From: a virus
Strand: one strand, 5' to 3'
Virus record (IMG/VR): IMGVR_UViG_3300031857_000055
Span: 32,001-96,000 of that record
DNA length: 64,000 nt
A program made the position numbers and the translations under genes. Positions within the stretch are counted from its first letter, which is position 1. The number at the start of each line of letters is the position of its first letter. Positions 8,172 through 45,072 of this stretch are shown piece by piece. The notes below the pieces were generated by a model that ran no database searches, had not been told where the DNA came from, and worked only from the letters and a program-made list of their open reading frames with translations.

Positions 8172-8210
8172 GTATCCATCTAAATACTCTTAGGAGTTTA
8201 CGATGGATAC
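8172..8210 (+). promoter_or_regulatory. Putative late promoter (TAAATA 8181-8186) inside a hairpin that buries the RBS and ATG of 8203
   Basis: GTATCCATC (8172-8180) is the exact reverse complement of GATGGATAC (8202-8210). Inner ACTC/GAGT pairing covers the TAGGAG RBS. Confidence 0.6.
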
Positions 8211-8508
8211 TAAAACCTTAATTACCGAAGCAAAAGCTCGTTTTGCTCACAACTCAGCAAAAGATTATCTAAAAGAAAAGTACAATGCAAAGCTATTAGT
8301 AGCAGAGCAGGGTGGTCTATGGCGTGCTGACAAAGAAACTATCTCTTTCTTAACAGCATTCTTGAATGAAGAAGTCGTTCTCATGGATACGTTTGACAAT
8401 CCAGTAAAGGTTAATAGACAAGACCTTAAAGACAAGTTGTGTGAAACTTATTATAGAGTGATGAACGAATGGCACAATGAGTGGAAAGAGCTTGAAAGTA
8501 AGAGATAA
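8203..8508 (+). CDS. Hypothetical protein, first gene of biosynthetic island
   Basis: 101 aa, strong AGGAG RBS. Confidence 0.7.
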   Translation: MDTKTLITEAKARFAHNSAKDYLKEKYNAKLLVAEQGGLWRADKETISFLTAFLNEEVVLMDTFDNPVKVNRQDLKDKLCETYYRVMNEWHNEWKELESKR

Positions 8509-8509
8509 C

Positions 8510-8683
8510 ATGACCGAACTGGTATACGATTCAGATAACGGCATCATCGCATTAGCATTACAAATGTACGTTCACTACGCTACTGAAATGGGCGGCGATC
8601 AGCATTTGATTGACAGAGCAGGTGAACTAGAGTTTATCTTTAAGAATAAACCTACAACAGAAAGATACGAGTGGCCAGAATGA
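8510..8683 (+). CDS. Small hypothetical protein
   Basis: ATG at 8510 right after previous stop; stop overlaps next start (ATGA). Confidence 0.55.
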   Translation: MTELVYDSDNGIIALALQMYVHYATEMGGDQHLIDRAGELEFIFKNKPTTERYEWPE

Positions 8684-9486
8684 CTCGTGGCGTAATACTA
8701 TTTGCCTTTAATAGTCCCAAATACAATTACTATGATATGGCTAAACATACTGCAAAGCGTGTTGAGCATTTCTTAAAGTTGCCTGTTACGTTAGTAACAG
8801 ATGACGATTCTATGCCTAAAGACGAGTACGAACTTTGGGATAAAGTAATAAAAATCAAACCGGACAAGAATAACTTTCGTGACTGGGGTATGTGGATCAA
8901 TAAGGGCCGCTATATGGCATATGAATTAAGCCCGTATGACGAGTCACTATTGTTGGATGTAGACTATATCATCAACTCAAACAAACTACTAACCTTATTT
9001 GATATTGACACAGACTTTTGCTGCCACAATAGAACTAATTTCTTAATGAATGTTGGTGCAGCACAAGAACTACTAAGCGCATATAGTTATGAAACACTAT
9101 GGGCTACTGTTGTGAAGTTCCGCAAGTCTAATCGTGCAGAACAAATTTTTAAATGTTTAGAAATGGTACAAAAGAACTATGAACACTACGCCAACATTCA
9201 TAATTTTATCGCCCCTGTATATCGTAACGATTATGCTCTTACTCTCGCCCTTCGCATTGCTAACGGCCATAGTAGTGATTCCCGCGATGTTATTCCTTGG
9301 GATTTATTGCACGTTGGAAAAAACACGCAAGTTTATCGTGATGGTGATGACCAGCTCGGCACAGAGTATACGGTCATGTTTGACAACTGGCAACGGGGCA
9401 AAATAAGAAAAGAGTATATCACAATCAAAGACCAAGACTTCCACGTGATGGATAAAGAAATATACGTGGAGATGATTAATGAATAA
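8680..9486 (+). CDS. GT-A glycosyltransferase-like protein (GT8/nucleotide-diphospho-sugar transferase-like)
   Basis: 'YELSPYDESLLLDVDY' DxD motif and 'RNDYA'. N-terminal 'RGVILFA' strand. Confidence 0.65.
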   Translation: MTRGVILFAFNSPKYNYYDMAKHTAKRVEHFLKLPVTLVTDDDSMPKDEYELWDKVIKIKPDKNNFRDWGMWINKGRYMAYELSPYDESLLLDVDYIINSNKLLTLFDIDTDFCCHNRTNFLMNVGAAQELLSAYSYETLWATVVKFRKSNRAEQIFKCLEMVQKNYEHYANIHNFIAPVYRNDYALTLALRIANGHSSDSRDVIPWDLLHVGKNTQVYRDGDDQLGTEYTVMFDNWQRGKIRKEYITIKDQDFHVMDKEIYVEMINE

Positions 9487-10237
9487 AGGCTTTGTCATTA
9501 TGGCGCAGGGACTTGACTATGAAGTTTGCGCCGATGTTCTTAAGGATAGCATATTAAATGTGATGCCTGATGCTAACGTAACAATCATTACTACTGATAT
9601 GCTTCCATATGGCGATCAAGCTCCCGACACTGATTGGAAGCTACAGAATGATTGGCAAGTATACGAAGCAAGCCCTTACGAGTATACTATCAAGCTTGAA
9701 GCTGATATGTATTTGCCAAGGTCAATTGAATATTGGTGGGATGTACTACAGAATAGAGACTTAGTAGTAAGCACTACAATCAGAAACTTCAAGCAAGAAA
9801 TATCGGATATCAAAGCATATCGTAGATTCATTACTGACAACAATCTACCTGATACTTATAACGCTATTACGTATTTCCGCAAGAGTGAATTAGCAGAAAA
9901 GTTCTTCAATATTGTGCGTGACGTATTTGAGAATTGGGCTGAGTATAAATCTGTTCTCAAGTGTAACGTTGATGAGATTTGTACTACAGACTGGGCTTAT
10001 GCTATCGCTGCACACATCCTGGGTGAAGAGAATACTACGCTACCTCAATTCAAAGAAATGTCAATGATTCACATGAAGCAATTCATTAATGGTTGTCCTA
10101 CAGAGAAATGGACAGACAATTTGATTTATGAGAAGCTTCCGCACACTTTCAGAATCAATACTATTCCGCAATTGTATCCATTACACTACCATGTAAAAAG
10201 CTTAGCCAAAGAAATCAAGGGGAATAACAATGGATGA
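9479..10237 (+). CDS. GT-A glycosyltransferase-like protein, paralog of preceding gene
   Basis: 'YEASPYEYTIKLEADM' (ExD variant of DxD), 'TTDWAYAIA', C-terminal 'LHYH'. Confidence 0.6.
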   Translation: MNKGFVIMAQGLDYEVCADVLKDSILNVMPDANVTIITTDMLPYGDQAPDTDWKLQNDWQVYEASPYEYTIKLEADMYLPRSIEYWWDVLQNRDLVVSTTIRNFKQEISDIKAYRRFITDNNLPDTYNAITYFRKSELAEKFFNIVRDVFENWAEYKSVLKCNVDEICTTDWAYAIAAHILGEENTTLPQFKEMSMIHMKQFINGCPTEKWTDNLIYEKLPHTFRINTIPQLYPLHYHVKSLAKEIKGNNNG

Positions 10238-10550
10238 AGTAATTGTTATTTGGGAAAGTCAGAAGGTTGACAAGCCAGAGTTTAGGCTGTATTATGATGA
10301 CAAGGGCTGTGTTATTAACTACACATGTGAACCTCATGAGGGTAACTATATTGTTATTGATGCCCTAACATTTGCTGAGGCTAGACCCGACATTAAAGTT
10401 ATTGACGGGAAGATCATTAAAAATCATTTTGGTTCAGTGATGAGTAAACTATGCAAAGACACTGAGGGTGTTCTTTGTGAGGTTGAAGACATAAGCATTA
10501 TCACTGAAACTGACGGACAACATTGGAAATTAAAAACTTATGAATTATGA
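10230..10550 (+). CDS. Hypothetical protein
   Basis: 106 aa, overlaps both neighbours (translational coupling). Confidence 0.65.
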   Translation: MDEVIVIWESQKVDKPEFRLYYDDKGCVINYTCEPHEGNYIVIDALTFAEARPDIKVIDGKIIKNHFGSVMSKLCKDTEGVLCEVEDISIITETDGQHWKLKTYEL

Positions 10551-11490
10551 TGACATTGTAGATATCGCAGACCTAGACTGCATCTATCTAAGCTATGACG
10601 AACCTCAGAAAGAAGAATTCTGGATCAAGATTAAGAACATGGTTCCGTGGGCTAAGCGAGTAGACGGAGTTAAGGGTAGTGATGCTGCACACAAGGCAGC
10701 AGGAGAAGCAAGTGAGACAGAACGTTTCATTCTCATTGACGGCGACAACATGCCGGACGAAGACTTCTTCAATCTACAGTTAGACTTTACAGGATTAGAT
10801 GAAAACTACAAGTTAGCGCAATATCGTTGGAGAGCGGTCAACGCAATCAACGGTCTGCGTTATGGCAACGGCGGTATGAGTTCTTGGACTAAGACTTATG
10901 TTGCCAACATGAAGACCCATGAGACAAGTGACGGAAGTGATACAACAGCGGTTGATTTCTGCATGGATTCTTCAGATAATCTATACTGGGCAATGCACGA
11001 TTGCTACTCTACAACGTATCCTAACTACACTCCCTTCCAAGCGTGGAGAGCAGGATTCCGTGAAGGTGTCAAGATGGTGCTTGATCGGGGTGCAAAGCCC
11101 AGTATAGACGAATTTCGTGAACGAGTTGCTGGACGCAATCTAAACAATCTTACTATTTGGCATAACGTTGGCGCAGATGTAGAGAATGGTCTTTGGGCTA
11201 TCTATGGTGCAAGATTAGGCACGCATATGACCATGCTTACTGATTGGAATTATCGTGATGTTGCAGACTTTGACAACTACCCTGCATTGTGGGACAAATA
11301 TAAGCACAACAATCCAGTCCTTAGTGCTGGGTTTATCGGAGAAGAACTTGAGAGTAAGTTAGGATTACCAATGTGTACTCTTGATGCTGAACAGTCTAAG
11401 TTCTTCAAGCGCCACTATAATTCAGACAAGTATAACATGGGTCCTCTCGTTAAGGAGATGGACGTAATCCGCAGAATTGAAGGATGGTAA
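10540..11490 (+). CDS. GT-A (family 2-like) glycosyltransferase-like protein
   Basis: 'DCIYLSYDE...RVDGVKGSDAAHKAA...FILIDGDN' with DxD. 'AWRAGFREGVK' also matches the C-terminal domain of 37911..43901. Confidence 0.6.
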   Translation: MNYDDIVDIADLDCIYLSYDEPQKEEFWIKIKNMVPWAKRVDGVKGSDAAHKAAGEASETERFILIDGDNMPDEDFFNLQLDFTGLDENYKLAQYRWRAVNAINGLRYGNGGMSSWTKTYVANMKTHETSDGSDTTAVDFCMDSSDNLYWAMHDCYSTTYPNYTPFQAWRAGFREGVKMVLDRGAKPSIDEFRERVAGRNLNNLTIWHNVGADVENGLWAIYGARLGTHMTMLTDWNYRDVADFDNYPALWDKYKHNNPVLSAGFIGEELESKLGLPMCTLDAEQSKFFKRHYNSDKYNMGPLVKEMDVIRRIEGW

Positions 11491-12887
11491 TGTCAGAATC
11501 AGAAACAGACAGAATTAAAAGAATCCGCGACTTTATTGATGTGAACACTACGCCTACATTCTGTTTGGCTAAGTGGCAGCATGTCACAATGTATCTACAG
11601 TCGGGTGAGACACACTCTTGCTATCACCCAAAGCCGCACAAGATTCCATTAGCTGAGTTAAAAGATAACCCAAGTGCATTGCATAATACGATGCACAAGA
11701 AGCTTGAGCGTAAAGAAATGCTTGAGGGGAAGAAGCCAGAAGGCTGTCAATATTGCTGGAACATTGAAGAAATGGGCCCTGACTATATCAGCGACAGACA
11801 TATTCGCAACGCAAGTATTTTTACAAAGGAACGCTATGAACAAGCCAGTAAGGGAGCCTGGGACCAAAACATCAACCCAGAGTATTTGGAAATTAATTTT
11901 GGTAACGAGTGTAATTTTAAATGCGGCTATTGCCATCCGAAATATAGTACAAGATTCTACAAAGAAATAGAAGACTTCGGTCCTGTTGAGAACGTAAAGA
12001 ATCATCGCTGCGATGTTGACTGGATGAAGCTATTTCAACGTGAAGAAGAAAACCCGTATGTTGATGCTTTCTGGGAATGGTGGCCTGAGCTACGCAAGAC
12101 ACTAAACATCATGCGTGTTACCGGTGGCGAACCCACACTGCACAAGTCAACATGGACACTGTTAGATAAGATTGATGAAGACCCAATGCCCTGGCTTGAG
12201 CTTAACATCAATAGCAATCTCGGCACTAAGAATATTCTTATTGATCGCCTTGCCGTCAAAGTAAAGAAGCTGGTAGACGAAAAGAAAATTCGTGCATTCA
12301 AGCTGTTTACAAGCATGGACACATGGGGTGAACGTGCTGAGTATATTCGCACTGGTCTTGAATTAGAGCTATGGGAAAAGAATTTTCACACCTATGTTCA
12401 AAAGAGTGAAAGCCCCATCACATTCATGATCACGTTCAACATCTTCTCAGTGACGAGCTTCAAGAGCTTGCTTGAGAAGTTCTTAGAGTGGCGCAGACAA
12501 TATGGCTGGGATGAAGAACGCAAGCAGCATATCATTCGCTTTGACACGCCGTATCTACGTGAGCCTATTCAATACGATATGAACATTCTTCCTAAGGAAC
12601 AGTTCATGCCCTACATGTACGAGTCATTGAAGTTTATGGAAGACAACTTAGATGACACTCGTGCAGACGCCTTCAGCACAATTGAATATGAAAAGTTCAA
12701 ACGAGTTGTTGACTATATGGCAGAAACAGTGTATAGTGAAGACAAGCTAATTGAAGGTCGCAGAGATTTCTATAATTGGTTTAATGAATTGGATGATCGT
12801 CGTGAGAATGATTTGTTGACTGTCTTCCCAGAAATGATGGATTTTTATAAATTATGTCAACAAGTAAATTTGACGAACCCTCTCTGA
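11484..12887 (+). CDS. Radical SAM protein with N-terminal twitch domain
   Basis: CNFKCGYC (CxxxCxxC) and GGEP. N-terminal 'FCLAKW...SCYH...GCQYCW'. Confidence 0.9.
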   Translation: MVMSESETDRIKRIRDFIDVNTTPTFCLAKWQHVTMYLQSGETHSCYHPKPHKIPLAELKDNPSALHNTMHKKLERKEMLEGKKPEGCQYCWNIEEMGPDYISDRHIRNASIFTKERYEQASKGAWDQNINPEYLEINFGNECNFKCGYCHPKYSTRFYKEIEDFGPVENVKNHRCDVDWMKLFQREEENPYVDAFWEWWPELRKTLNIMRVTGGEPTLHKSTWTLLDKIDEDPMPWLELNINSNLGTKNILIDRLAVKVKKLVDEKKIRAFKLFTSMDTWGERAEYIRTGLELELWEKNFHTYVQKSESPITFMITFNIFSVTSFKSLLEKFLEWRRQYGWDEERKQHIIRFDTPYLREPIQYDMNILPKEQFMPYMYESLKFMEDNLDDTRADAFSTIEYEKFKRVVDYMAETVYSEDKLIEGRRDFYNWFNELDDRRENDLLTVFPEMMDFYKLCQQVNLTNPL

Positions 12888-13114
12888 GAAATAGAAAATG
12901 GGAGTGCATTGGTATGGATATGCCTAGCCAAAATGCCGTATATAATATCCGTGCGCAAGAAATCAGAGATTGGATTGAAGAACAACCGACAGTCATGTGG
13001 GCGCAGTATGGTATAGATGAGATTTACGAGGGTAAACCTATATCTGCAATGTTTGGGCAGAACTATGTCTTTACAGAAGAAATGGAGGCGTGGTTCACGT
13101 TAAGATGGGTATGA
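12854..13114 (+). CDS. Small hypothetical protein (C-terminal F-x-L-R-W family)
   Basis: 86 aa ending 'FTEEMEAWFTLRWV'. Overlaps both neighbours. Confidence 0.6.
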   Translation: MSTSKFDEPSLRNRKWECIGMDMPSQNAVYNIRAQEIRDWIEEQPTVMWAQYGIDEIYEGKPISAMFGQNYVFTEEMEAWFTLRWV

Positions 13115-14373
13115 ATTTAACAGATAAAGCAAAGAATAGCAAAACTTTTTGTGTGTATCCCTGGATACACATTCATACCAGTCCAATGGGAGCTATTGCA
13201 CCATGCTGCATAGGGGCGTCGGTGTCAAACACCGATTTAGCCGACGAAGTAAAAGGAAAACGTCTTGATGATTTAGTAAATCATGACAGAATCAAGCAGT
13301 TACGGTTAGACATGCTTGCAGGAAAAAAATGTAGTGAATGTAAAATCTGTTATGAATTAGAAGATGCAGGGGTTGATAGTTTTAGAGTAACGGGCTTGAG
13401 AGAATATCCTGAGGTCGCTGAGGAATTAGTAACTGACACTAATATAGATGGATCACTGTCTAATTTTGAAATGCGTTATTTTGATATGCGCTTTAGTAAC
13501 ATTTGTAACTTCAAGTGTAGAACTTGCGGTCAAGAATATAGCAGTCAGTGGGAACAAGAAAATCTACGAAACAACGTATCATATGCAAGGATGTTTTCTA
13601 AAGGTGCCGAAACTGAATTACTTGAAGATGTGTTAGAACAAGTACCCAACTTTGAAACTGCGTATTTTGCAGGCGGTGAACCTCTGATTACCGAAGAACA
13701 TTATATTATCCTAGAAGAAATGATTCGTAAAGGTAAGACTGATGTGGCATTGCGGTATAATACTAACATGAGCAATATTAAATTCAAGAACAAGGATTTA
13801 ATGTCTCTTTGGAAAAACTTTAAACATGTTAATGTATCTGCGAGTATTGATCATTACGGTGAGAGAGCAGAATATATTAGGCATGGTACTAACTGGTCAG
13901 TTGTAGAAGAAAACTTAAAGATAGCTAAAGAATCAGCCGTGGTTAACTTATCCTTAAATACTGTTCTGAGCGTGTTTAACTTTTTTACCATTGACTCTTT
14001 TTACAAGTATATGCACCACGCTAACATCTATACTAAAAATAGTCCGGAATCAACATTATACTGCATGACCTCGCCTGATCACCTGGCATGTCATTGGTTG
14101 AATCCAGAACATAAACTTATAGGGAATGAGAGCTTAAGTAGAGCAATAAATTTTATGGAACAAGAAAATTTCCGAGAAGGTCACATCCGACATATCAAAG
14201 CAGCATTAAATTGGTCGTGCTCCAAAGACACTTCTGATAACATAGACGGGAGTGGTTATACTAACGCTATCAATTTCAGAAATTCTATTGAGGAACTAGA
14301 CAAGATCAGGGGAGAATCATTTGAGAAGGTATTTCCTGAATTGATTCCAATATTGGAATCTACATATGAATAA
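13111..14373 (+). CDS. Radical SAM protein with N-terminal twitch domain
   Basis: CNFKCRTC and AGGEP. N-terminal 'FCVYPWIH...PCC...CKIC'. ATG at 13111 overlaps previous stop. Confidence 0.9.
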   Translation: MNLTDKAKNSKTFCVYPWIHIHTSPMGAIAPCCIGASVSNTDLADEVKGKRLDDLVNHDRIKQLRLDMLAGKKCSECKICYELEDAGVDSFRVTGLREYPEVAEELVTDTNIDGSLSNFEMRYFDMRFSNICNFKCRTCGQEYSSQWEQENLRNNVSYARMFSKGAETELLEDVLEQVPNFETAYFAGGEPLITEEHYIILEEMIRKGKTDVALRYNTNMSNIKFKNKDLMSLWKNFKHVNVSASIDHYGERAEYIRHGTNWSVVEENLKIAKESAVVNLSLNTVLSVFNFFTIDSFYKYMHHANIYTKNSPESTLYCMTSPDHLACHWLNPEHKLIGNESLSRAINFMEQENFREGHIRHIKAALNWSCSKDTSDNIDGSGYTNAINFRNSIEELDKIRGESFEKVFPELIPILESTYE

Positions 14374-15595
14374 AGACTTTCTCTTAAACGATAGCAAGAC
14401 ATTTTGCATGTTCCCGTGGGTGCATTTAAATGCGACGCCTAAGGGTGACGTATATCCTTGCTGTAGTAATGACTATACAGACCCAGTTGGTAACACTAAG
14501 AATAATTCATTAGAAGAAATCTTTAACAGTCCAAAGATGAAAGAATTACGCTTGGATATGTTAAACGAGCGTAAAAATAAGATTTGCGACTTCTGCTATA
14601 AGCACGAAGAAGCTGGCCCGTATAGTTTCCGTAACTATAGCAAAGAACACTTTGGCAAATACTTTGATGAAATTGTACCCACCACACAAGATGATGGTAC
14701 TGTTGACGAATTCAAGATGAGATATTTTGATATCAGATTTAGTAACATTTGTAACTTTAAGTGCAGAACCTGTGGGTCAGAGTTTAGCTCTAAGTGGGGC
14801 GAAGAAATGCGCAAGAACTACGACCCTAATCATCCCGTGTTAATTCACGTTGATGATAATCGTGGCACAGTTCTTGATGAAGTGTTAGAGCATATTGAAC
14901 ATATTGATCTTGCATACTTTGCGGGCGGCGAACCACTCATCACTGATGAGCATTATACTATGCTTGAGGCAATGATTCGTAAGGGCCGCACTGACATTAC
15001 TCTACGCTATAACACAAATGCAAGCAATATCAAGTATAAAAAGCATGATGTACTTGATTTATGGAAGCATTTTAAAAAGATTGAACTAAGCTGTAGCATT
15101 GATCACTATGGCGAACGTGCTGAGTATATGCGTAAAGGAACAGACTGGGGAGTTGTAGAAAGCAATTTACTTACATTCCGTGAATTGGATTATGTTATCT
15201 TTCAGATGAATACTGTTTTCAGTATCTACAACTACCTCACTATCGGAGACTTTTATCAATATCTTAAGGATAAGAACATCGTGAGAACAGAAGATTGGTA
15301 TCATTCGCTCTATCTTGCCGTACATCCTAATTATTATTGTGCTAAAAGTCTCCCTAAAGAATTAAAAACAGTAGCAGGTGAAAAAGCATTAGCCTGGGCT
15401 AACGCTAATATGGACGACAAGACTTGTGTACCAAGACTCGTGGTAGATGCAGTGAACTTTGCGAACGATACCGATCAGTGGGGCGAAGTCAGAGACAAGT
15501 TCTTGATGCATACTAAGTCAGTTGACAGAATTAGAGGCGAAAACTTCTGGGAAACCTTCCCCGAATTAAATAGATTACAGGATTTATATGAATGA
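14366..15595 (+). CDS. Radical SAM protein with N-terminal twitch domain
   Basis: CNFKCRTC and AGGEP. 'FCMFPWVH...PCC...CDFC'. Close paralog of 13111. Confidence 0.9.
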   Translation: MNKDFLLNDSKTFCMFPWVHLNATPKGDVYPCCSNDYTDPVGNTKNNSLEEIFNSPKMKELRLDMLNERKNKICDFCYKHEEAGPYSFRNYSKEHFGKYFDEIVPTTQDDGTVDEFKMRYFDIRFSNICNFKCRTCGSEFSSKWGEEMRKNYDPNHPVLIHVDDNRGTVLDEVLEHIEHIDLAYFAGGEPLITDEHYTMLEAMIRKGRTDITLRYNTNASNIKYKKHDVLDLWKHFKKIELSCSIDHYGERAEYMRKGTDWGVVESNLLTFRELDYVIFQMNTVFSIYNYLTIGDFYQYLKDKNIVRTEDWYHSLYLAVHPNYYCAKSLPKELKTVAGEKALAWANANMDDKTCVPRLVVDAVNFANDTDQWGEVRDKFLMHTKSVDRIRGENFWETFPELNRLQDLYE

Positions 15596-15714
15596 ACGAA
15601 AAGAAGTACTGTCCCCCATTATCATTGACCACTCAGTGGGAATTTTGGGCTTGGATTTATAATATGAAGCGAAATGACAGTGCAAGGTTCAAGAAGAAGA
15701 AACAGTATGATTGA
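15592..15714 (+). CDS. 40-aa Trp-rich peptide (not in ORF track)
   Basis: MNEKKYCPPLSLTTQWEFWAWIYNMKRNDSARFKKKKQYD. ATGA overlap with upstream stop and 8-nt overlap with downstream ATG 15707; fills the gap exactly. Confidence 0.55.
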   Translation: MNEKKYCPPLSLTTQWEFWAWIYNMKRNDSARFKKKKQYD

Positions 15715-16984
15715 CAAGAATAAAGTAGAAAAGTTAGTTACAGAAGGTAAGCATTTTTGCGTGTTGCCTTGGGTGCATTTTCATGCATGGCCCGATAAGC
15801 GAGTAATGCCTTGCTGCGTTGCTGACAGTAACATGCCGGTAGCTCAAATTGAGGGCGATCAATCTATTATTGAAATGATGAACAGCGACCGCTACAAGGA
15901 AATTCGTGCGGCGATGCTTGATGACATTGAAGTTCCTGAGTGTAAGCGTTGCTTTGACCTTGAGCTTATGGGTACATGGACTATGCGCCAGAGTCATAAT
16001 AAGCGCAGAGGTCAAGACTATGTAAACTACATTGCTGAGAACACACAAGAAGACGGTGCGCTCTCAGAGTTTGAAATGAAGTACATGGACATTCGTTTCA
16101 GCAATCTATGTAACATGAAGTGCCGTAGTTGTGGCCCAGACTGTTCAAGTCAGTGGGCGCAAGAGTTTGTTGACAAGCGTGGAAAACAAATGTGGGAAGA
16201 ATACTTCCCTAATCGTAAAGTAGTCATCAACAATAACGATGACCAAAAGTTTATGGTTAAGTTAAAGCCATATCTTGCAGACGTTTCAGAAGTATACTTT
16301 GCTGGCGGCGAAATTATTATTACGCCAGAGCATTATGAATGTCTTGATTATTGGGTTGAAAATGGTCAGGCAGATACTATTGAATTAAACTATACTACTA
16401 ATTTCTCAACATTACATGGATATAAAGACAAGAACCTACTTGAATATTGGAAGAAGTTCAAGAATATTCAAGTGTGGGCGTCATTAGATGCACACGGTGA
16501 TCTAGCCGAATGTATTCGTAAGGGCACTGATTGGGATAAGATCGTTGCTAACATTAAGAAGTTGAAGGAAGAACTTCCTCACGTACAATTGAGCATTACG
16601 CCTACTATTAGTATTTGGAATATCTTTAAGTTCCCTGACTTCTTTGACTACATGGTTGAAAACAATTTGCTGGATCTAACGATTAGTCCAAGATTTAATC
16701 TTGCGACTAGCCCATGGTATGCTAATGTCATGATTCTTCCTAGACATGTAAAGAACAGATTAGTTGAGCTTTACCGTGTTTATCAGAACAAGTACGGCAA
16801 AGATAATATGGATATTTATAATGGCTTCAAGATGATTATCTATAATCTAAGCGTAGGCGACGAAAACAAAGGAGGCATTCTGGAGTTCAAGCAGTTCAAT
16901 GACGAGCTGGATCAGTTTAGAAATGAGAAGTTTGAAGACCTTGTTCCGGAGATTAAGGAAGTGTACGAGTGGGCCGCAAGTTAA
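15707..16984 (+). CDS. Radical SAM protein with N-terminal twitch domain
   Basis: CNMKCRSC and AGGE. 'FCVLPWVH...PCC...CKRC'. Confidence 0.9.
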   Translation: MIDKNKVEKLVTEGKHFCVLPWVHFHAWPDKRVMPCCVADSNMPVAQIEGDQSIIEMMNSDRYKEIRAAMLDDIEVPECKRCFDLELMGTWTMRQSHNKRRGQDYVNYIAENTQEDGALSEFEMKYMDIRFSNLCNMKCRSCGPDCSSQWAQEFVDKRGKQMWEEYFPNRKVVINNNDDQKFMVKLKPYLADVSEVYFAGGEIIITPEHYECLDYWVENGQADTIELNYTTNFSTLHGYKDKNLLEYWKKFKNIQVWASLDAHGDLAECIRKGTDWDKIVANIKKLKEELPHVQLSITPTISIWNIFKFPDFFDYMVENNLLDLTISPRFNLATSPWYANVMILPRHVKNRLVELYRVYQNKYGKDNMDIYNGFKMIIYNLSVGDENKGGILEFKQFNDELDQFRNEKFEDLVPEIKEVYEWAAS

Positions 16985-25959: not shown

Positions 25960-25982
25960 AATGTGTCCAATAAATAGTTGCA

Positions 25983-26780: not shown

Positions 26781-26792
26781 TAGGAAAAATAT

Positions 26793-29140: not shown

Positions 29141-29166
29141 ATACTACACGATATAGGGAGCAACAC

Positions 29167-33827: not shown

Positions 33828-33848
33828 TAGTTCTCGTTAAATACTATT

Positions 33849-36402: not shown

Positions 36403-36408
36403 GATAAA

Positions 36409-37902
36409 ATGAACTACGTAGGTATTAGTTGCGGCTTCCATGATGCCGGCTTAAGCGTCATTGATGATAATGGCAATATACTTTTTGCTGGGCATAGTGA
36501 GCGTTACAGCATGAAGAAACACGACAGCGAATTGTGTTTAGGCATTGTTGAAGATGCTAAACGCTATATCAACGATGACTTTGAAGTACACTATTATGAG
36601 CGTCCGTATGTCAAGGCTGTTAGGCAGTTTATTGCTAAGCAAAAGCTTGGCCCTTTCAATGTCAACGAGATTATTGGCAATCAGAACCTACGCGGATTAG
36701 ATAGTTTTAGGCACATTCGTCAGGGTAAAGTAAAGACTCACAATCATCATCTATGTCACGCCGCTGCAGGGTTCCAAACAAGTCCGTATGAAGATGCTAC
36801 CGTAGTTGTCATTGACGCTATTGGGGAATTAGATACTATTAGCATTTGGGATGCAACGTATGATAAGAACGGTAAAGCAAAATACAAGAAGATTTGGGGC
36901 CGTAAGTATCCTGACTCTATCGGACTATTCTACTCTGCGATGACAGCACGAGTAGGCTTGCGCCCGCTAGATGAAGAATACATTCTAATGGGCATGGCTG
37001 CATATGGTAAGCCTGTATATGATATCTCAATGCAACAACTGTTCATCAACTTTAAAGAGATTGTTTTAAAAGACAACCTGCACATCGGAGTTGATGAGAA
37101 GTTTCTAAAGGATGCAGACGAAATGGATATTGCTGCATCTGCACAGGTTGTTGTTGAACAGCTAATAGAAACAGTAATGAAGAAGGCTAAGAAGTTAGGT
37201 AGAAGTGACAATCTCGTATATGGGGGCGGCGTTGCTCTCAACTGTCTTGCCAACAGATTGATTGGCAAGTACTATCAGAACATTTGGATTATGCCTAACC
37301 CGGGCGATGCAGGCAACAGCTTAGGTGCAGCAGCGTTAGGCTATGGTAAGAAGGTCAACTGGACTGATGCTTTCTTAGGATTTGACATTGAAGGTGATTA
37401 TCCGGTTGACAATATCATCAAAGAATTATATAGTAACAAGATGGTAGGTGTCGCTAGTGGCAGGGCAGAATTTGGCCCTCGTGCATTAGGTAACCGAAGT
37501 CTACTTGCAGACCCTCGCGGGCCTGATATTAAGGATAAAGTAAATGACATTAAACGAAGACAGAAGTTCAGACCGTTTGCGCCTATCATTTTGGAGGAGC
37601 TGGTTACTGATTACTTTGATATGCCTAGTGGCTGGAGTGACAGTCGGTATATGCAAGTCATCGCTACTTGTAGGCTACCTGACTTATTTCCTGCTATCGT
37701 TCATCATGACGGGACTTCTCGTGTTCAAACTGTCCCGAATGACGGATCAGGAATTAGAAAACTACTAGAAGCTTGGTATAAAGAAACCGGCTGCCCAATG
37801 CTATTGAATACGTCATTGAACATTCGCGGAGAACCTATGGTTAATGATAGAAACGATGCGGACAGGTTTGAAAAACTCTATGGGGTAACTGTCTGTAGCT
37901 AA
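36409..37902 (+). CDS. O-carbamoyltransferase (NodU/CmcH/TobZ family)
   Basis: 'HDAG...ERY..KKH', 'HHLCHAA', 'DAIGE', 'GGVALNC', 'PGDAG', 'EFGPRALGNRSLLADPR' and 'LLNTSLN'. Confidence 0.93.
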   Translation: MNYVGISCGFHDAGLSVIDDNGNILFAGHSERYSMKKHDSELCLGIVEDAKRYINDDFEVHYYERPYVKAVRQFIAKQKLGPFNVNEIIGNQNLRGLDSFRHIRQGKVKTHNHHLCHAAAGFQTSPYEDATVVVIDAIGELDTISIWDATYDKNGKAKYKKIWGRKYPDSIGLFYSAMTARVGLRPLDEEYILMGMAAYGKPVYDISMQQLFINFKEIVLKDNLHIGVDEKFLKDADEMDIAASAQVVVEQLIETVMKKAKKLGRSDNLVYGGGVALNCLANRLIGKYYQNIWIMPNPGDAGNSLGAAALGYGKKVNWTDAFLGFDIEGDYPVDNIIKELYSNKMVGVASGRAEFGPRALGNRSLLADPRGPDIKDKVNDIKRRQKFRPFAPIILEELVTDYFDMPSGWSDSRYMQVIATCRLPDLFPAIVHHDGTSRVQTVPNDGSGIRKLLEAWYKETGCPMLLNTSLNIRGEPMVNDRNDADRFEKLYGVTVCS

Positions 37903-37910
37903 GTATACAT

Positions 37911-40900
37911 ATGCTTAGAGACGTTTTTTATTATGGCAAGAAGCCCAATGTCCACCCAAGAGAACAATTCGCAGAAAATCTAGCTGATGCTAGACTAAAG
38001 GCCACTACTCGTGACTTTTGGATCATCAACGAGTTCTGCGACTACAGAAATTTTGATTGGGACTTTGATTTTGAATTCCTCCCGGACGAAGACGTTTGGG
38101 CAGAAGATCACAATAACGTGTGGCCCAGTCAACATCAAAAAGATAGCGGCACCTGGTTGTGTTCTAAAGAACATAGTGACCTAATCATCTATCGCGGTGA
38201 CGTAGACCCAGTCATTCGTAAAAACGAAAAGACCGATCATTGGGTTGAACTTGATTTAATTAATCACAATAAGTTTGACTTTAGTTGGCACCCTGACCCA
38301 ACTGACCCTCCCTATATCTATAAGTGGCCCTGCAAGTTCTTCCCTGCTGAGTTCAAGCATGTGTTAGAATATCGTGTGCCAGGAGCAACGCAAGAAAAAT
38401 ACATGAACACAATTGCAGAGTTGGTTCCTGAGTATGATCGTTGGGAAGAACATCAAGCAATTGACAAAGATAGATTTGATATGTCGTGGAGACCGAATCC
38501 ACTTGACCCGCCATTCACATATGTTTGGGGCAACAAATATATTGACGGGACACTTAGGCCCACGCTGGAGTATCATACACCAGGAGCAACTGATAAGAAG
38601 TATATGTCAGAACTTGTTCCAGTACTGCCCGAAACTGATAGATGGAGCATAGTCGAAGATATTGATAAAACATCGTTTGACTTTAGCTGGAGACCTGATC
38701 CTAGAGAACCTGCATTCATTTACGTATTTGGTAACGAACAATATGATGGCACTATCATGCCTACTGTTGAGTATCACTGTCCCGATGCAAATGAAATTAA
38801 GTACGTCACTGATATCAAAGCCAAGCTATCAAGTAAGAGAGAATTATTTGAACATCTTGAAGACAGCTATGGTTTAGATTATACTTGGAGACCCGACCCT
38901 ACAAGTCCTCCCTATATCTATGCGTGGGGGAATCAGTGGAATGCTCCAGAAGATAAAATCTCAGTGCAGTATGTTGTAGATGGTGCAACAGAATACAAGT
39001 ATATGACTGACAGGGCTGTTCGCAGACCATGCATGGATAACTGGATAGTCCCCAAAGATGTTGATACAACTGGATTTGATTTCAGTTGGGAACCTAGCCC
39101 TGCTGCACCACCGTATATTTACGAGTTCGCAACACAATGGCAAAAGACGGGCGGCCCTCAGTATGTAGTGCCCGGCGCTACTGAGAAACAGTATGTTGAC
39201 TTCCAAAAGGTCAGAAAACTACCTTCAGTAGATAATTGGAATGTGCCTGATAACATTGATAGCACTACGTTCGACTTCAGTTGGCACCCAGACGATACAA
39301 GTCCCCCTTACATTTATGTGTTTGCTACCCAATGGGCATTCAGCGGCGGCCCTGTATACAAGGTAGAAGGCGCTACAGAAATCAAATACGTAGACGAACA
39401 AGTAGCGACTGCTAAGCCAGATAGAACCAATTGGGTCTATGATGAAAAACTAATTGATATAGCAGAGTTTGATTTTAGTTGGCATCCATATGTAGAAGAC
39501 CAGCCCTATATCTATCAGTTTGGAACTCAATGGCAAAAGACGGGCGGACCTAAGTACATTACCTCGGGTGCAGATAGCTCCAGCCCAGTTAAGTACATTG
39601 ACACCCGTATCATCAAGTCTACCCGTTTACCGACCCCAGATAACAAGTGTTGGAATAATCTATATCCTATAAAAGATTTTGATTATAGTTGGCACCCCGA
39701 CGACACCGAAGAACCATATATCTACGTGTTTGGAAATACTCAGTACCCTGCCGAAGAGTGTGCTACTATTGAATATAGAATGGAAGGTGCTACTCAGGTA
39801 AAGTATGTTCGTGATATAGTTGCGACATTAGATATAGATATGACTAATTGGGTCATACCAAAAAATGTAGACTGTGCGGGCTTTGACTTTAGCTGGATAC
39901 CTAATCCTAACGACCCTTTATATATCTATGAGTTTGGAACTCAGCATCAAAAGACGGGAGGACCTCGTTACGTAGTATCAAATGCTACTGAAATCAAATA
40001 TATTGATTCACAAAAGGTAATCATACTACCCAACAAAAGTGATTGGTTCATACCTGATAATGTTGATGTTGCTGAGTTTGATTTTAGCTGGCACCCTGAT
40101 GATACTGACCCTCCCTATATCTATCAATTCGGCACTCAGTGGGCGCTGTCGGGCGGCCCTCGTTATGTAGTTGACGGTGCAACAGAAATCAAATATATGG
40201 ATAATCTAGTTGCTAAGGCACTGCCTGATAGAACTAATTGGGTCTATGATGAAAACTTAATTGATGTAGCAGAGTTTGATTTTAGTTGGCATCCTTACGC
40301 AGAAGATGATCCCTATATCTATCAGATTGGTACTCAGTGGCAGAAAACAGGTGGCCCTAAATATATTACACCGGGGGCAGATTTATCTAGCCCTGTGAAA
40401 TATATTGACACACGTATTATCAAAGCTAGACGCTTAGAAAATCCTGAGAATACATGCTGGGTAAGAAATTATCCTATCAAGCATTTTGATTATAGTTGGC
40501 ATCCGGATGAGACAGAAGAACCTTATATCTATGTTTTCGGCAACAAGCAATTTTTAGCTGAGGAATGTGCCACCGTCGAATATAGAATACCGGGAGCAAC
40601 GACTGTAAAGTACATACCCGATATCATTGCAACATTAGATGTTAACATGGATAAATGGGTTGTCCCTGATAACATAGACACGACTGATTTTGACTTTAGT
40701 TGGATTCCTAATCCAAGTGAGCCACCATATATCTACGAGTTCGGCACTCAGTGGCAAAAGACAGGCGGACCTAAATATGTTATGCCGGGAGCTTGGCGCG
40801 GAACAAAATACGTTGATGATCAAACAGCAAAGAGACTTCCGGACCATCAGTACTGGACTGTTCCTGACTATATTGACAAGGAAAGCTTTGATTTTAGTTG

Positions 40901-43900
40901 GCACCCCGATGCTACAGAAGAACCATATATCTATGTATTCGCTACACAGTGGGCATTTAGTGGCGGGCCAGTATATACGGTTCCGGAAGCTACTGAAATT
41001 AAATATGTAGAAGAACAGCTTGCTACAGCACTTCCTAATAAGGCTAATTGGGAATACGATGCAGATGCAATTGATATTGACAGCTTTGATTTTAGCTGGC
41101 ACCCATATGTAGAAGATCAGCCCTACATCTATCAGTTTGGTACTCAGTGGTGGGAAACAGGTGGCCCTAGATACATTGCCCCCGGTGCCGATGCTGACAG
41201 CCCTATCAAATATATTGATACTAGAATTATCAAGGCTACAACAAAGTCCAGACTAGACAATTGGGAAATACCCGATACCGTTGATGTTTCTAAATTTGAT
41301 TTATCTTGGGTACCGCATCCGGAAGACCCGCCCTATATCTATGTGTTTGGTAACCAATGGTTCCCTGCTGAAAAGATGCCCACTGTAAAGTATCATGTCG
41401 AGGGCGCAACTGAATTAAAGTATGTGTCAACCATTAGTGCTACACTAAAGCCAGACATGACAAACTGGAGAATTCCTAAGAATCTTGTCATTAAAGATTT
41501 TGACTTTAGTTGGGTACCTGACCCTTACGATCCTCCGTACAATTATATATTCGGAAATCAGTGGTACGGAGCTCAAGAAATGACAACGGTGACATACGCT
41601 GCTCCGGGGGCTAAAGAAGATAAATTTGTAACTGATATAGTTGCAACTTTAGGAAAGAACTTAACTAACTGGGAAATTCCTGCAGGAGTCGATGTTCGTA
41701 GGTTTGATTTTAGCTGGATACCGCATCCAGCTGCACCCCCTTATATCTATCAGTTTGGTACATTACAAGATCCTACCGACGGTCCTATATATAATACTCC
41801 TAATAATAATGGAGAAACAGTCCGCGTTCCTAGATTAGAGACTGATGAAGAATTAAATCCGACAGGAGAGGCCCCATCTGAAATTCAAATCAATAGATAT
41901 TACCTTACTACTACGATAGAAGACCTTGCTAAGCAACACCCTGATGAATTGTTCTGGGCATTGAATCCAGACATTGATTATACTAATTTTGATTTCGATT
42001 GGAGACCTAGTATTGAACAAGCAGAATACGTTCATGCGTTCGGTTCTGCTGCCAGTGAAAAGACACAGACATATTTCGTTAACGGTCCACAATGGGTCAA
42101 GGGAAATCGTGCTATCAACTGGGTACAAAACGTAGAACTAACTGAAAAGGCATTGGCGGAGATGTTCGTTAAGCCTGATATGTTCTTTGTTGATAGAAGC
42201 AACCCTGAATCTGCTGCTAGATTTGAAGCACTAAGGGCGAAATATGGTACAAGAATTCAGAAGACTCGCTATCTGAATAGCTGGGTTGACACTATCAATC
42301 GTTGTGCTAATCGTGCAACGAGTAGTTTGATTTGGGTATTGAATAGCGAACTTGACTATAGCGATTTTAACTTTGATTACTATCCTAACCCTTGGCAGAT
42401 GAAGATGGTTCATGTGTTTGGTACTCAGTGGTCACATTGGGGAACTACATTCATGGTCAACCGTGAGACATTTGCGGAAGACACCAAATATATCAAGATC
42501 ATTGAACACTTGAGTAATCTAAACTTTGTGAAAGACATTAGAGCTAAAGCTACAAAATGCAGTCACGATATCATTGTAATTGATCACGGTAATAAAGAAA
42601 CATCCGATGTTGTATCCATCTTACAGCAGAAGGCGCCGGACAGAACAGTTGTTACTACCAAATACAATGGCAGCTATTTGGACACACTAAGAGAAGTTAT
42701 CAAGCGCCAGCCTGAAAAGAAAGAACATTTCATTTGGGTATGCTCAAGTGTTTGCGATTACACTAACTTTGATTTCACATATATCATTGATCCATTTTCA
42801 AGAGACAATCTACATGTTTTTCCTAGCGGTAAGCAGAAGTTCGGAGACACGTTCTTCATTGATGTTAATAATGCAAGAGAAGTAATCAGTGAACTTGACA
42901 AGCTTGAAAACTTTACTAAGGTAAATTATAATGGTGCTGTGAAGGCAGAACGCCTAAAAGAACCAATCATCGTCATTAGTGATGACACTCATACGAGTTC
43001 AATTGACAAAATTACTGACTTCCCTTATGCGACATTAATTACAAGTGATAACGTTGACATTGGTAAGGTTGACATAGAGCCAATGAATCTATGGTCAGCC
43101 GAAACTAAGAATATCTACGTGACAAGCACAGGTTCTACTAGAATTGTTGCTCCTAAAGAAATCAAGGATCACGTTAAGAAAGAGCTATACGAATATCCAT
43201 ATATCAAACGTGCTCCTAAGCTGGCATTGTCAAATCCATTAGACATTGTGTTCTTGAGTAACGGAGAAACTGGAGCAGAAGAACATTATGAGCATTTGCT
43301 GAATATCACTAAGAATCTCCCTAACAGAGTAGTGAGAGTGGATGGCGTGAATGGTCGTGCAGCAGCATATCACGCAGCAGCAGAAGCAAGCAACACTCCT
43401 TGGATGTTCACTGTGTTTGCTAAGCTGAAGGTCAGTCCTAAGTTTGACTTTAACTGGCAACCAGATAGAATGCAGAGTCCAAAGCATTATATCTTCCATG
43501 CAAAGAATCCTGTTAATGGATTGGTATATGGTCACCAAGCAATGATTGCGTACAATAAGAAGCTAACTCTAGCCAATGACGGTAAAGGACTAGACTTTAC
43601 ATTAGATGATGAGCATGAAGTTGTTCCGTTGATTTCAGGTACTGCTCAATACAACACTGATGAGTTCTCAACATGGAGAACAGCATTCAGAGAGGTCATC
43701 AAGCTTAGAGCAGATGATAGCGAAGTGTCTAAGGAAAGACTTGATGCATGGTTGAATAAGGCAGAGGGTGACTTTGCTCAATACAGCATCAAGGGTGCGT
43801 TGGATGCAGACGAGTATTACGATGAAGTAGACGGCGACTTTGACCAGTTGAAGTTGAGCTATGAGTGGGCTTGGCTCAGAGAAAAATTTGACCAAATCTG

Positions 43901-43901
43901 A
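37911..43901 (+). CDS. 1996-aa tandem-repeat protein with degenerate GT-A-like domains at the C-terminus
   Basis: About 18 copies of a ~65-aa unit 'W..P...D...FDFSWxP....PYIYxFGxQW...GGP.Y...GA...KY'. C-terminal domain homologous to 10540..11490. Confidence 0.75.
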   Translation: MLRDVFYYGKKPNVHPREQFAENLADARLKATTRDFWIINEFCDYRNFDWDFDFEFLPDEDVWAEDHNNVWPSQHQKDSGTWLCSKEHSDLIIYRGDVDPVIRKNEKTDHWVELDLINHNKFDFSWHPDPTDPPYIYKWPCKFFPAEFKHVLEYRVPGATQEKYMNTIAELVPEYDRWEEHQAIDKDRFDMSWRPNPLDPPFTYVWGNKYIDGTLRPTLEYHTPGATDKKYMSELVPVLPETDRWSIVEDIDKTSFDFSWRPDPREPAFIYVFGNEQYDGTIMPTVEYHCPDANEIKYVTDIKAKLSSKRELFEHLEDSYGLDYTWRPDPTSPPYIYAWGNQWNAPEDKISVQYVVDGATEYKYMTDRAVRRPCMDNWIVPKDVDTTGFDFSWEPSPAAPPYIYEFATQWQKTGGPQYVVPGATEKQYVDFQKVRKLPSVDNWNVPDNIDSTTFDFSWHPDDTSPPYIYVFATQWAFSGGPVYKVEGATEIKYVDEQVATAKPDRTNWVYDEKLIDIAEFDFSWHPYVEDQPYIYQFGTQWQKTGGPKYITSGADSSSPVKYIDTRIIKSTRLPTPDNKCWNNLYPIKDFDYSWHPDDTEEPYIYVFGNTQYPAEECATIEYRMEGATQVKYVRDIVATLDIDMTNWVIPKNVDCAGFDFSWIPNPNDPLYIYEFGTQHQKTGGPRYVVSNATEIKYIDSQKVIILPNKSDWFIPDNVDVAEFDFSWHPDDTDPPYIYQFGTQWALSGGPRYVVDGATEIKYMDNLVAKALPDRTNWVYDENLIDVAEFDFSWHPYAEDDPYIYQIGTQWQKTGGPKYITPGADLSSPVKYIDTRIIKARRLENPENTCWVRNYPIKHFDYSWHPDETEEPYIYVFGNKQFLAEECATVEYRIPGATTVKYIPDIIATLDVNMDKWVVPDNIDTTDFDFSWIPNPSEPPYIYEFGTQWQKTGGPKYVMPGAWRGTKYVDDQTAKRLPDHQYWTVPDYIDKESFDFSWHPDATEEPYIYVFATQWAFSGGPVYTVPEATEIKYVEEQLATALPNKANWEYDADAIDIDSFDFSWHPYVEDQPYIYQFGTQWWETGGPRYIAPGADADSPIKYIDTRIIKATTKSRLDNWEIPDTVDVSKFDLSWVPHPEDPPYIYVFGNQWFPAEKMPTVKYHVEGATELKYVSTISATLKPDMTNWRIPKNLVIKDFDFSWVPDPYDPPYNYIFGNQWYGAQEMTTVTYAAPGAKEDKFVTDIVATLGKNLTNWEIPAGVDVRRFDFSWIPHPAAPPYIYQFGTLQDPTDGPIYNTPNNNGETVRVPRLETDEELNPTGEAPSEIQINRYYLTTTIEDLAKQHPDELFWALNPDIDYTNFDFDWRPSIEQAEYVHAFGSAASEKTQTYFVNGPQWVKGNRAINWVQNVELTEKALAEMFVKPDMFFVDRSNPESAARFEALRAKYGTRIQKTRYLNSWVDTINRCANRATSSLIWVLNSELDYSDFNFDYYPNPWQMKMVHVFGTQWSHWGTTFMVNRETFAEDTKYIKIIEHLSNLNFVKDIRAKATKCSHDIIVIDHGNKETSDVVSILQQKAPDRTVVTTKYNGSYLDTLREVIKRQPEKKEHFIWVCSSVCDYTNFDFTYIIDPFSRDNLHVFPSGKQKFGDTFFIDVNNAREVISELDKLENFTKVNYNGAVKAERLKEPIIVISDDTHTSSIDKITDFPYATLITSDNVDIGKVDIEPMNLWSAETKNIYVTSTGSTRIVAPKEIKDHVKKELYEYPYIKRAPKLALSNPLDIVFLSNGETGAEEHYEHLLNITKNLPNRVVRVDGVNGRAAAYHAAAEASNTPWMFTVFAKLKVSPKFDFNWQPDRMQSPKHYIFHAKNPVNGLVYGHQAMIAYNKKLTLANDGKGLDFTLDDEHEVVPLISGTAQYNTDEFSTWRTAFREVIKLRADDSEVSKERLDAWLNKAEGDFAQYSIKGALDADEYYDEVDGDFDQLKLSYEWAWLREKFDQI
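38270..41800 (+). repeat. Coding tandem repeat (~200-nt units) with a ~810-nt higher-order period
   Basis: Units recur in blocks of four. DNA near 39421, 40230 and 41040 is visibly similar (ttgggtctatgatgaaaa...gattttagttggcatcc). Confidence 0.8.
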
Positions 43902-44800: not shown

Positions 44801-44803
44801 TTT

Positions 44804-45046: not shown

Positions 45047-45072
45047 CACTCTCCGTACTTGATAAATACAGT

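Follow-up and report, generated by a model that had tools for sequence, protein, structure and literature searches.

The DNA analysed here, a 64,000-nucleotide stretch (the window) covering bases 32001-96000 of the 106,541-bp viral contig IMGVR_UViG_3300031857_000055 (CheckV completeness 29%), carries behind its tail-fibre genes a 35.7-kb gene island (8203-43901) that is supported, from its predicted proteins, as a glycan-type biosynthetic and tailoring system. An earlier note on this DNA had already read the region as a glycan biosynthetic island, and enzyme families for sugar supply and tailoring as well as transferase-like proteins were indeed identified in it. Judging from its baseplate, fibre and terminase genes, the window is a fragment of a jumbo phage of the T4 superfamily. 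Its source is an abundant uncultured freshwater lineage: near-identical DNA occurs in freshwater and lake metagenomes of ~16 studies, and a complete relative of 360,683 bp has direct terminal repeats. The island is dominated by families that lack a characterised member, and it is devoid of any export function. By exclusion and from genomic context, we tentatively favour a phage-made protein, glycosylated in the cytoplasm, as the acceptor of the glycan, an assignment that we place somewhat short of an even chance.

The island, which represents ~10% of the genome (36 kb), consists of 29 co-oriented open reading frames (ORFs) of at least 80 amino acids (aa) on the + strand, with a coding density of ~99.5% and an operon-like packing (20 of the 28 junctions overlap). 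Two additional small ORFs in the gaps bring the total to about 31 genes, so that the orientation and overlap described in the earlier note stand but its count of ~33 does not. Ten of the proteins have no assigned family, and a PHROG search with ten uncharacterised island proteins matched only phrog_1903 and phrog_25854, both likewise uncharacterised.

Sugar supply is represented first by a true homologue of GDP-mannose 3,5-epimerase (GME), confirmed by a match to the Arabidopsis enzyme over residues 16-331 (E 2e-92) that lies far above the next family (about 1e-27); the GME-like label is thus upheld and the corresponding activity is predicted. The protein formerly called Ugd is assigned no further than to the nucleoside diphosphate (NDP)-sugar 6-dehydrogenases, among which its sequence is divergent. 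Among the tailoring enzymes, the amidinotransferase was recognised correctly: a profile of ten orthologues, itself included, matched StrB1 over its full length (E 4e-104), and the catalytic Cys motif is retained in an invariant C-terminal GGGFHC that contains H319-C320. Pfam likewise matched the carbamoyl- and methyl-transferases, and it places the proposed aminotransferase in the DegT family, though the protein has only 196 aa. This short form is conserved: ORF305 of cyanophage S-SCSM2R (195 aa) aligns with it from end to end at 55% identity; a phmmer search of the Protein Data Bank (PDB) with it gave no match. The four SGNH-like proteins have the expected GxS/GxN/His motifs and are mutually related (hhalign links 21296 to 35552 at 93% and to the 25180 family at 84%), but no Pfam, PHROG or PDB sequence matched any of them, so that the SGNH label is provisional. 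The oxygenase claimed earlier comes down to the N-terminal domain of 33849 (residues 2-165), which is 29% identical to S-SCSM2R ORF308, annotated as a 2-oxoglutarate (2OG)-Fe(II) oxygenase, and to an HxD motif seen by eye.

Seven radical S-adenosylmethionine (SAM) enzymes were counted before, and Pfam and NCBIfam find the same seven: four N-terminal-twitch enzymes of family NF033640, two B12-binding enzymes and a short one. The tandem NF033640 paralogues score 311 (11484), 359 (13090), 379 (14366) and 362 bits (15674) against the N_Twi_rSAM model (cut-off 170), and their SPASM/twitch domain (~residues 14-93) is N-terminal of the radical SAM CX3CX2C core. In the B12-binding pair, 22116 and 29167, both the B12-binding and the radical SAM domain exceed the Pfam cut-offs, whereas all named NCBIfam models stay below theirs: 22116 reaches 246 bits against NF033712 (KedN5; cut-off 700), and 29167 is best matched by C-methyltransferase models for ribosomally synthesised and post-translationally modified peptides (RiPPs), including TIGR03975 (104 bits, cut-off 282) and ApyD. 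Bacterial relatives of the NF033640 enzymes, whose context was established by tblastn plus one Pfam search, are found in two settings: (i), as 4-8 paralogues in tandem in metagenome-assembled genomes (MAGs) of Bacteriovoracaceae, Elusimicrobia and others, and (ii), beside genes for family 2 glycosyltransferases (GT2), acyl carrier protein (ACP) and ketosynthases, as in Paenibacillus, where the NF033640 copy lies with an ACP, two ketosynthases, a short-chain dehydrogenase/reductase (SDR), a GT2 and a phosphopantetheinyl transferase.

Two groups of glycosyltransferase (GT)-like proteins would assemble the glycan. As the earlier note had it, five domains form a TEK family (17931, 20232, 24083, 27983 and the C-terminal half of 33849) with an invariant (S/T)EK...PF core. 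A model of 17931 from a 43-sequence alignment (pLDDT 89.3, pTM 0.87) gave 92 Foldseek hits at E <= 1e-3 (from 3e-5) and VIA Z scores of 12.6-10.5 across residues 1-441, and the matches listed in both searches are all glycosyltransferase entries; the tied best matches include a phage HY126 transferase, a Helicobacter pylori alpha-1,3-fucosyltransferase (Z 12.3) and the T4 DNA glucosyltransferases. From this one modelled member, the TEK paralogues are taken as glycosyltransferase-like proteins of GT-B fold, and we infer a sugar-nucleotide-dependent transfer activity from the fold, the invariant residues (R226, E323, E335-K336, D376 and R384) and the domain fusions. The family is very large, with 14,115 clusters (50% identity) at E <= 1e-3 and 12,006 at E <= 1e-10, it is almost entirely viral in the Atlas, and relatives are encoded on at least 496 viral contigs. 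A BLAST-level search of cultured phages with the TEK protein and a search of PDB sequences with a profile of the five paralogues both gave no match.

The best functional clue for the family is a fusion: in relatives of 755-760 aa, the TEK domain (1-423) continues into an epimerase domain with 59% identity to 19219, and 19219, an epimerase of the same type, is the direct neighbour of 17931 in the window. This fusion points to GDP-L-galactose/L-gulose-type donors. Other TEK fusions involve FkbM-type methyltransferases. The GT10 alpha-1,3-fucosyltransferases resemble TEK in several ways, namely the GT-B fold (the H. pylori enzyme being one of the tied top matches), an (S/T)EK motif whose E-K pair is invariant, which is a likeness at the level of sequence motifs, and a genetic link to an enzyme that makes a GDP-L-sugar. 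GDP-L-fucose, the donor of GT10, is chemically close to GDP-L-galactose/L-gulose. Unlike TEK, GT10 proteins match PF00852: none of the 43 TEK members did at E <= 0.1, and the assignment of TEK to CAZy GT10 by profile was rejected; Atlas similarity between TEK and GT10 is only 0.78-0.79, which is at the level of a lead.

The three GT-A-like proteins proposed before fared unequally. For 10540, a model (pLDDT 86.8) and an invariant DxD (D67 and D69) agree: its fold matches are to GT-A transferases or to nucleotidyltransferases that share this fold (VIA Z 9.8-7.4, residues 3-167), among them PBCV-1 A64R, mimivirus R699 and glycocin S-glycosyltransferases, with moderate Z scores and weak Foldseek E-values (5.7e-4 and above); its family profile retrieved nothing usable from PDB sequences. 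10540 is also the most conserved protein of the island, matched by at least 8000 clusters, with 83-97% identity among the best 120 listed. The 8671 and 9479 families are related to each other (hhalign 99.4%), D96 and D98 of the 8671 DxD are invariant and 19 of 19 PDB matches are to glycogenin, across the DxD, but these are sub-threshold (best E 0.03, ~65 residues covered) and Pfam gave no match, which leaves the pair as GT8-like at that level. The giant repeat protein is as described: besides 18 tandem repeats, the 1996-aa product (53% identical to its homologue in the complete relative) contains three larger degenerate modules and a C-terminal GT-A-like domain resembling 10540, with FTVFAK at the position of the DxD. 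A motif recurs after this position in the C-terminal domain, and on that basis one idea is that the repeats might be an amplified GT sub-module; hhalign detected no similarity between the repeat and the 10540 family.

The island follows the fibre genes, as the earlier note had observed, and a synteny search showed that this holds in distant relatives too: the complete relative and dozens of viral contigs keep it in synteny, without exception behind fibre homologues (28-95% identity). Closer relatives retain the whole order of fibre, 8203, 8671, 9479, 10230, 10540 and 11484 onward, recognisable down to 28-48% identity. The fibre genes share an N-terminal virion-protein domain (phrog_14394) and encode Ser/Thr/Asn/Gly-rich sequences, the C-terminus of the 3334-5574 product having ~14 short HxH repeats of a kind known from T4 gp37 needle tips. 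The same fibre is very rich in N-x-S/T triplets, for which composition alone may account. In the complete relative, the island occupies the same place without 21296, 22116, 25180/25983, 31428-32841 and the long form of 33849, and the cassette with the short DegT, the amidinotransferase and the 2OG-like domain is also found in the cultured cyanophage S-SCSM2R. The island is therefore best described from its gene content as a stable core with exchangeable cassettes, and such turnover from one relative to another, which is also a trait of O-antigen loci, is suggestive of an exposed structure under diversifying selection. Six contigs filed as bacterial MAGs (Verrucomicrobia TMED56, Rickettsiales MED606, Haliscomenobacter, Legionellales and Betaproteobacteria TMED41) carry the fibre gene and the island head in phage order, and we thus treated them as mis-binned phage contigs, not as a bacterial context.

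A short element may tie the island to the structural genes. Of the 24 TAAATA copies on the + strand of the window, 12 have a start codon no more than 60 nt downstream, whereas 5% would be expected to have one (P 6.5e-10). It precedes the island starts 8203, 25983, 29167 (by 24 nt) and 33849, among others, and also fibre, virion-protein and terminase genes. Upstream of 8203, TC-TAAATA-CT and an AGGAG are invariant in 13 relatives in which the flanks have diverged. Co-regulation of the island with the structural genes is plausible. In the window, the strict T4 late box TATAAATA occurs twice against 5.7 expected copies and hence shows no enrichment, and a scan for sigma-70-like promoters and intrinsic terminators remained at chance level.

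The pathway that we propose would start from host GDP-mannose, converted by the GME homologue to GDP-L-galactose or GDP-L-gulose. The TEK enzymes would use these donors, a proposal made because of the TEK-epimerase fusion in relatives and of the E-K donor motif in common with GT10, and the GT-A proteins would start or extend the chain. Its sugars could then be C-methylated or rearranged, carbamoylated, aminated, guanidinylated, methylated and (de)acylated. Assembly would occur directly on a phage protein in the cytoplasm, either the adjacent tail fibres or another virion protein, with the 1996-aa repeat protein as an alternative acceptor acting as carrier or scaffold, and the particle would leave the cell with a variable sugar coat. 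Three results fit this choice, each of them indirectly: (i), a simple hydropathy window found no hydrophobic segment in the 29 island products; (ii), no priming transferase or flippase (PF02397, PF00953, PF01943) matched in the source contig or in the complete relative, whereas control genomes did match (Wzy, WaaL and ABC families were not searched), so that an exported polysaccharide would depend wholly on host machinery; and (iii), no entry enzyme for DNA modification was found, since the only ThyA-family gene of the complete relative is a canonical ThyA, with no second member that could be a hydroxymethylase, and neither TGT nor DpdA is present in it (a TET/JBP search gave no match, but its control was also unmatched and the result is void). 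With soluble products, no export machinery and no DNA entry enzyme, cytoplasmic glycosylation of a phage protein is the most economical solution. In its fullest form, the proposal is that a ~360-kb abundant uncultured freshwater phage lineage builds a heavily tailored oligosaccharide directly on its own fibres or virion, with L-galactose/L-gulose-type and uronic sugars bearing C-methyl, carbamoyl, guanidino and acyl groups, by means of two families without a characterised member (the viral GT-B family of ~14,000 clusters, and the N-terminal-twitch radical SAM enzymes, with sugars as their substrates). The phage would thereby acquire a true glycocalyx, and the exchange of cassettes would adjust its host range or its evasion. 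Taken as a whole, we regard this as possible but rather doubtful.

Several points weigh against a glycan on the phage's own proteins. No Pfam family matches the TEK or GT-A-like proteins, whose activity is deduced from fold and motifs. The crude hydropathy window was the sole transmembrane scan. None of the sequencing runs listed with island sequence is an RNA run. TAAATA also lies ahead of the DHFR-ThyA operon at 51095 and of the tmRNA (transfer-messenger RNA) region: the element is not confined to late genes and, given also the unenriched T4 late box, late timing is not established, so that the motif put forward earlier stands as an element shared with the structural genes but not as a late-type one. 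Lipid-linked intermediates at the inner membrane face are another class of acceptors for soluble glycosyltransferases, and the lack of membrane proteins is hence compatible with use of the host Wzx/Wzy/WaaL. Finally, the nearest phage clusters, those of P-SSM2, the jumbo cyanophages and the pelagimyophages, have been read as host-surface modification (PMC1079782, PMC7824862, PMC7029224).

Transposed to the island, this published reading would have the lipopolysaccharide (LPS) or capsule pathway of the host receive transferases and modified sugar nucleotides from the soluble phage enzymes, so that the surface of the infected cell changes, for example to block superinfection or to stop progeny from adsorbing to debris. 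The O-antigen-like variability of the cassettes fits such a role, and GT8-like proteins are typical LPS enzymes. We nevertheless consider it unlikely, if the most serious competitor: the island encodes no membrane protein and the complete relative has neither a polyprenyl-phosphate priming transferase nor Wzx; the island has stayed linked to fibre and structural genes, with which it has its upstream element in common; the investment would be huge for a lytic-type phage; and the published reading is itself putative.

The product could instead be a soluble secondary metabolite, a free aminoglycoside-like or nucleoside-sugar molecule acting on the host or on competitors. The StrB1-type amidinotransferase, the DegT protein and the TobZ/NodU-type carbamoyltransferase recall aminoglycoside tailoring, the B12 radical SAM enzymes are near families of the KedN5/AprD4/GenK type, and Iyer et al. 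proposed a secondary metabolite for a carbamoyltransferase/2OG/methylase cluster of a cyanophage. The parallel with streptomycin-type guanidino chemistry extends to the full-length StrB1 match, the catalytic Cys motif and the adjoining aminotransferase-family protein, but not to a cyclitol synthase or phosphotransferase, which the island lacks. More generally, the Pfam/NCBIfam results for the 29 ORFs (ten of them without a family) contain no cyclitol core or scaffold synthase, exporter or resistance gene; eight transferase-like proteins and a 1996-aa repeat protein better fit the assembly of a polymer or conjugate, and the amidinotransferase cassette is optional among relatives, being missing from the complete one. 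We thus find a metabolite improbable.

Still less probable is a RiPP-style system, in which the twitch and B12 radical SAM enzymes would modify a phage protein, such as the 18-repeat protein, that the transferases also glycosylate. In its favour are the frequent occurrence of twitch/SPASM domains in peptide maturases, the 18 near-identical sites of the repeat protein, the RiPP C-methyltransferase models as the best for 29167 and the glycocin S-glycosyltransferases among the GT-A fold hits. Against it, all RiPP-model scores are far under their cut-offs, bacterial NF033640 relatives lie beside GT2, ACP and ketosynthase genes or in tandem arrays, not beside obvious precursor peptides, and no leader-peptide-like gene or RiPP recognition element was found. 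Thymidine hypermodification by radical SAM and pyridoxal phosphate enzymes is known in phages. Hypermodification of the phage DNA, with transferases glycosylating bases and tailoring enzymes elaborating the adduct for escape from restriction, is the least credible reading and a very remote one: the T4 beta- and alpha-glucosyltransferases are among the tied TEK matches (Z 12.2 and 10.6) and phage DNA glycans are on record (Pyle 2024, as cited in PMC12619734), but such matches are generic to GT-B and the complete relative has the single canonical ThyA beside DHFR mentioned above.

The surroundings of the island agree with the identity of the phage (Table 1). On the 5' side of the fibre genes are found a virion protein, a baseplate hub, a gp6-like baseplate wedge and then a 6548-aa ORF entering the window, whose last 845 aa gave no match in a PHROG search. 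On the 3' side come, in order, a permuted tmRNA, a protein with a GNAT module, an HNH endonuclease, DHFR and ThyA, and beyond these further sugar genes, a virion protein and the large terminase. The window ThyA aligns end to end with bacterial ThyA (E 3e-86), retains the PFNIAS Asn and adjoins DHFR. The permuted tmRNA sits within a 1.2-kb non-coding stretch directly 3' of the island, and a TATAAATAG box lies at 44792 within its region. A TAAATA element is present 5 nt before the start of the 692-aa GNAT protein. G+C is raised (0.485) in the region of the HNH endonuclease, and 47541-50282 has long ORFs overlapping on both strands. Sinorhizobium phage Phosso and Pseudomonas phage PA5oct have terminases with 49-51% identity to the large terminase of the window; a nucleotide search of cultured phages with window positions 1-25000 gave no match. 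A paper on a 'moraphage' was rejected as a description of the present phage, as it concerns a different lineage.

Table 1. Features of the window, in window coordinates unless stated otherwise.
Position	Strand	Feature	Remarks
contig 14892-34538 (window ..2538)		6548-aa single ORF	after gp6-like baseplate wedge gene
3334-5574, 5945-7183, 7199-8152	+	tail-fibre genes	directly upstream of island; candidate acceptors, not island members
5583-5915	+	small ORF	among fibre genes
8128-8147	+	terminator-like hairpin	just before TAAATA element
8181-8186	+	TC-TAAATA-CT element	ahead of first island gene (8203)
8203-8508	+	conserved 101-aa protein, first island gene	no Pfam or PHROG match; kept in 24 loci
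8671-9486	+	GT8-like GT-A protein	paralogue of 9479
9479-10237	+	GT8-like GT-A protein	paralogue of 8671
10230-10550	+	conserved 106-aa protein	no function assigned
10540-11490	+	GT-A-like transferase	GT-A N-domain (residues 1-165), invariant DxD, helical C-domain
11484-16984	+	four tandem N-terminal-twitch radical SAM enzymes	starts 11484, 13090, 14366, 15674; NF033640, paralogous
12854-13114	+	86-aa ORF	between first two twitch radical SAM genes
16969-17931	+	short radical SAM protein (320 aa)	PF04055, 29.8 bits; weak viperin/MoaA-type matches
17931-19259	+	TEK GT-B glycosyltransferase-like protein	member modelled
19219-20232	+	GDP-mannose 3,5-epimerase homologue	PDB 2c59; Pfam Epimerase
20232-21299	+	TEK GT-B-like protein	short form
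21296-22162	+	SGNH-like protein	motif level; invariant G9, S11, G75-N76, H265
22116-24086	+	B12-binding radical SAM enzyme	Pfam B12-binding and Radical_SAM; nearest KedN5 C-methyltransferase family
24083-25183	+	TEK GT-B-like protein	
25180-25959	+	SGNH-like protein	paired with 25983; invariant GCS, GN, DxH
25983-26780	+	SGNH-like protein	39% identical to 25180
26793-27983	+	divergent NDP-sugar 6-dehydrogenase	Ugd/GDP-mannose dehydrogenase family
27983-29140	+	TEK GT-B-like protein	
29167-31431	+	B12-binding radical SAM enzyme (754 aa)	Pfam
31428-32018	+	short DegT/DnrJ/EryC1-family protein	Pfam PF01041, E 1.7e-12
32015-32869	+	SAM-dependent methyltransferase, HemK/PrmA/MTS-like	Pfam
32841-33827	+	StrB1-type amidinotransferase	full-length match to PDB 1bwd
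33849-35555	+	fusion protein	2OG-oxygenase-like N-domain, TEK GT-B C-terminal half
35552-36301	+	SGNH-like protein	motif level
36409-37902	+	NodU/CmcH-type carbamoyltransferase	Pfam Carbam_trans_N E 9e-34, Carbam_trans_C E 2e-47
37911-43901	+	1996-aa protein	18 tandem 65-70-aa FDFSW...PYIY repeats
44776-45094	+	permuted (two-piece type) tmRNA	tag VAANDNNVDLALAA; ARAGORN
45073-47151		692-aa multi-module protein	GNAT domain residues 428-496; N-terminal phrog_36119 domain
48933-50291		HNH endonuclease	phrog_1314, E 4e-104
52132-53429		DHFR and canonical ThyA	operon behind TAAATA element
53949-59146	+	second, smaller sugar cassette	outside the span of the earlier note; adjoins virion protein and terminase genes
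53949-54914	+	SDR epimerase/dehydratase	
54820-55944	+	full-length DegT aminotransferase	
58442-59146	+	methyltransferase	

The earlier statement that no comparable phage pathway was known holds for characterised pathways only and was otherwise overstated, because uncharacterised clusters of 15-24 'LPS' genes and carbamoyltransferase/2OG/methylase clusters have been published from cyanophages (PMC1079782, PMC7824862, PMC12801897): P-SSM2 has 24 'LPS' genes in two clusters (PMC1079782) and jumbo cyanophages have GT-rich clusters and clusters of carbamoyltransferase, 2OG and methylase genes (PMC7824862). The authors took these clusters, like the pelagimyophage ones (PMC7029224), for a means of modifying the host surface. 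The island is a larger and differently composed variant of these clusters in another phage lineage. Like those of the T4-like jumbo cyanophages (P-SSM2, S-SSM6a, S-SCSM1 and S-SCSM2R), it is large, co-oriented, carried by a T4-superfamily phage of aquatic hosts and endowed with epimerases, dehydrogenases, several GT families, a carbamoyltransferase, a HemK-like methylase and 2OG oxygenases or, in the island, a 2OG-oxygenase-like domain, and the cultured S-SCSM2R has direct homologues of the amidinotransferase (56%), the short DegT and the 2OG-like domain. Unlike them, it reaches 35.7 kb and about 31 genes, includes seven radical SAM, five TEK GT-B and four SGNH-like proteins and the giant 18-repeat protein, and lacks the sugar kinases and nucleotidyltransferases described in the cyanophages, from which the present phage also differs in lineage, its terminase being nearest to jumbo phages of the Phosso/PA5oct type. 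The hypervariable region of pelagimyophages is similar in lying beside the tail-fibre module and in having radical SAM cassettes subject to turnover, and its GT8-type transferases and UDP-glucose dehydrogenase have GT8-like and NDP-sugar 6-dehydrogenase counterparts in the island, but pelagimyophage genomes are below 200 kb and their freshwater members were reported without such genes (PMC7029224). In contrast, a far larger set is found here in a ~360-kb freshwater phage.

The PBCV-1 chlorovirus capsid and the mimivirus fibrils are glycosylated in the cytoplasm by virus-encoded soluble transferases. Capsid and tail glycosylation by virus-encoded transferases has also been described in mycobacteriophages (Freeman 2023, as cited in PMC12619734). 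These systems resemble the island in combining soluble GT-A/GT-B proteins with sugar-nucleotide tailoring enzymes, although there is no relation at the sequence level and the PBCV-1 A64R and mimivirus R699 fold matches are generic; the known phage cases involve two to four genes against ~thirty in the island. Should the glycan prove to sit on the particle, no other virion-glycosylation system known from a bacteriophage would come near it in elaboration, and the consequences in lakes would extend to host recognition and stability as well as to grazing and immune-type evasion. As the island encodes nothing required for export, it also challenges the textbook 'LPS genes' reading of the cyanophage and pelagiphage clusters. 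Independently of the target, the island brings to light a very large family of viral GT-B proteins that has no Pfam model and that a fusion connects with the supply of GDP-L-sugars; it places the uncharacterised radical SAM family NF033640 in a first functional context, that of sugar pathways; and it introduces a predicted StrB1-type guanidinylation step in phages.

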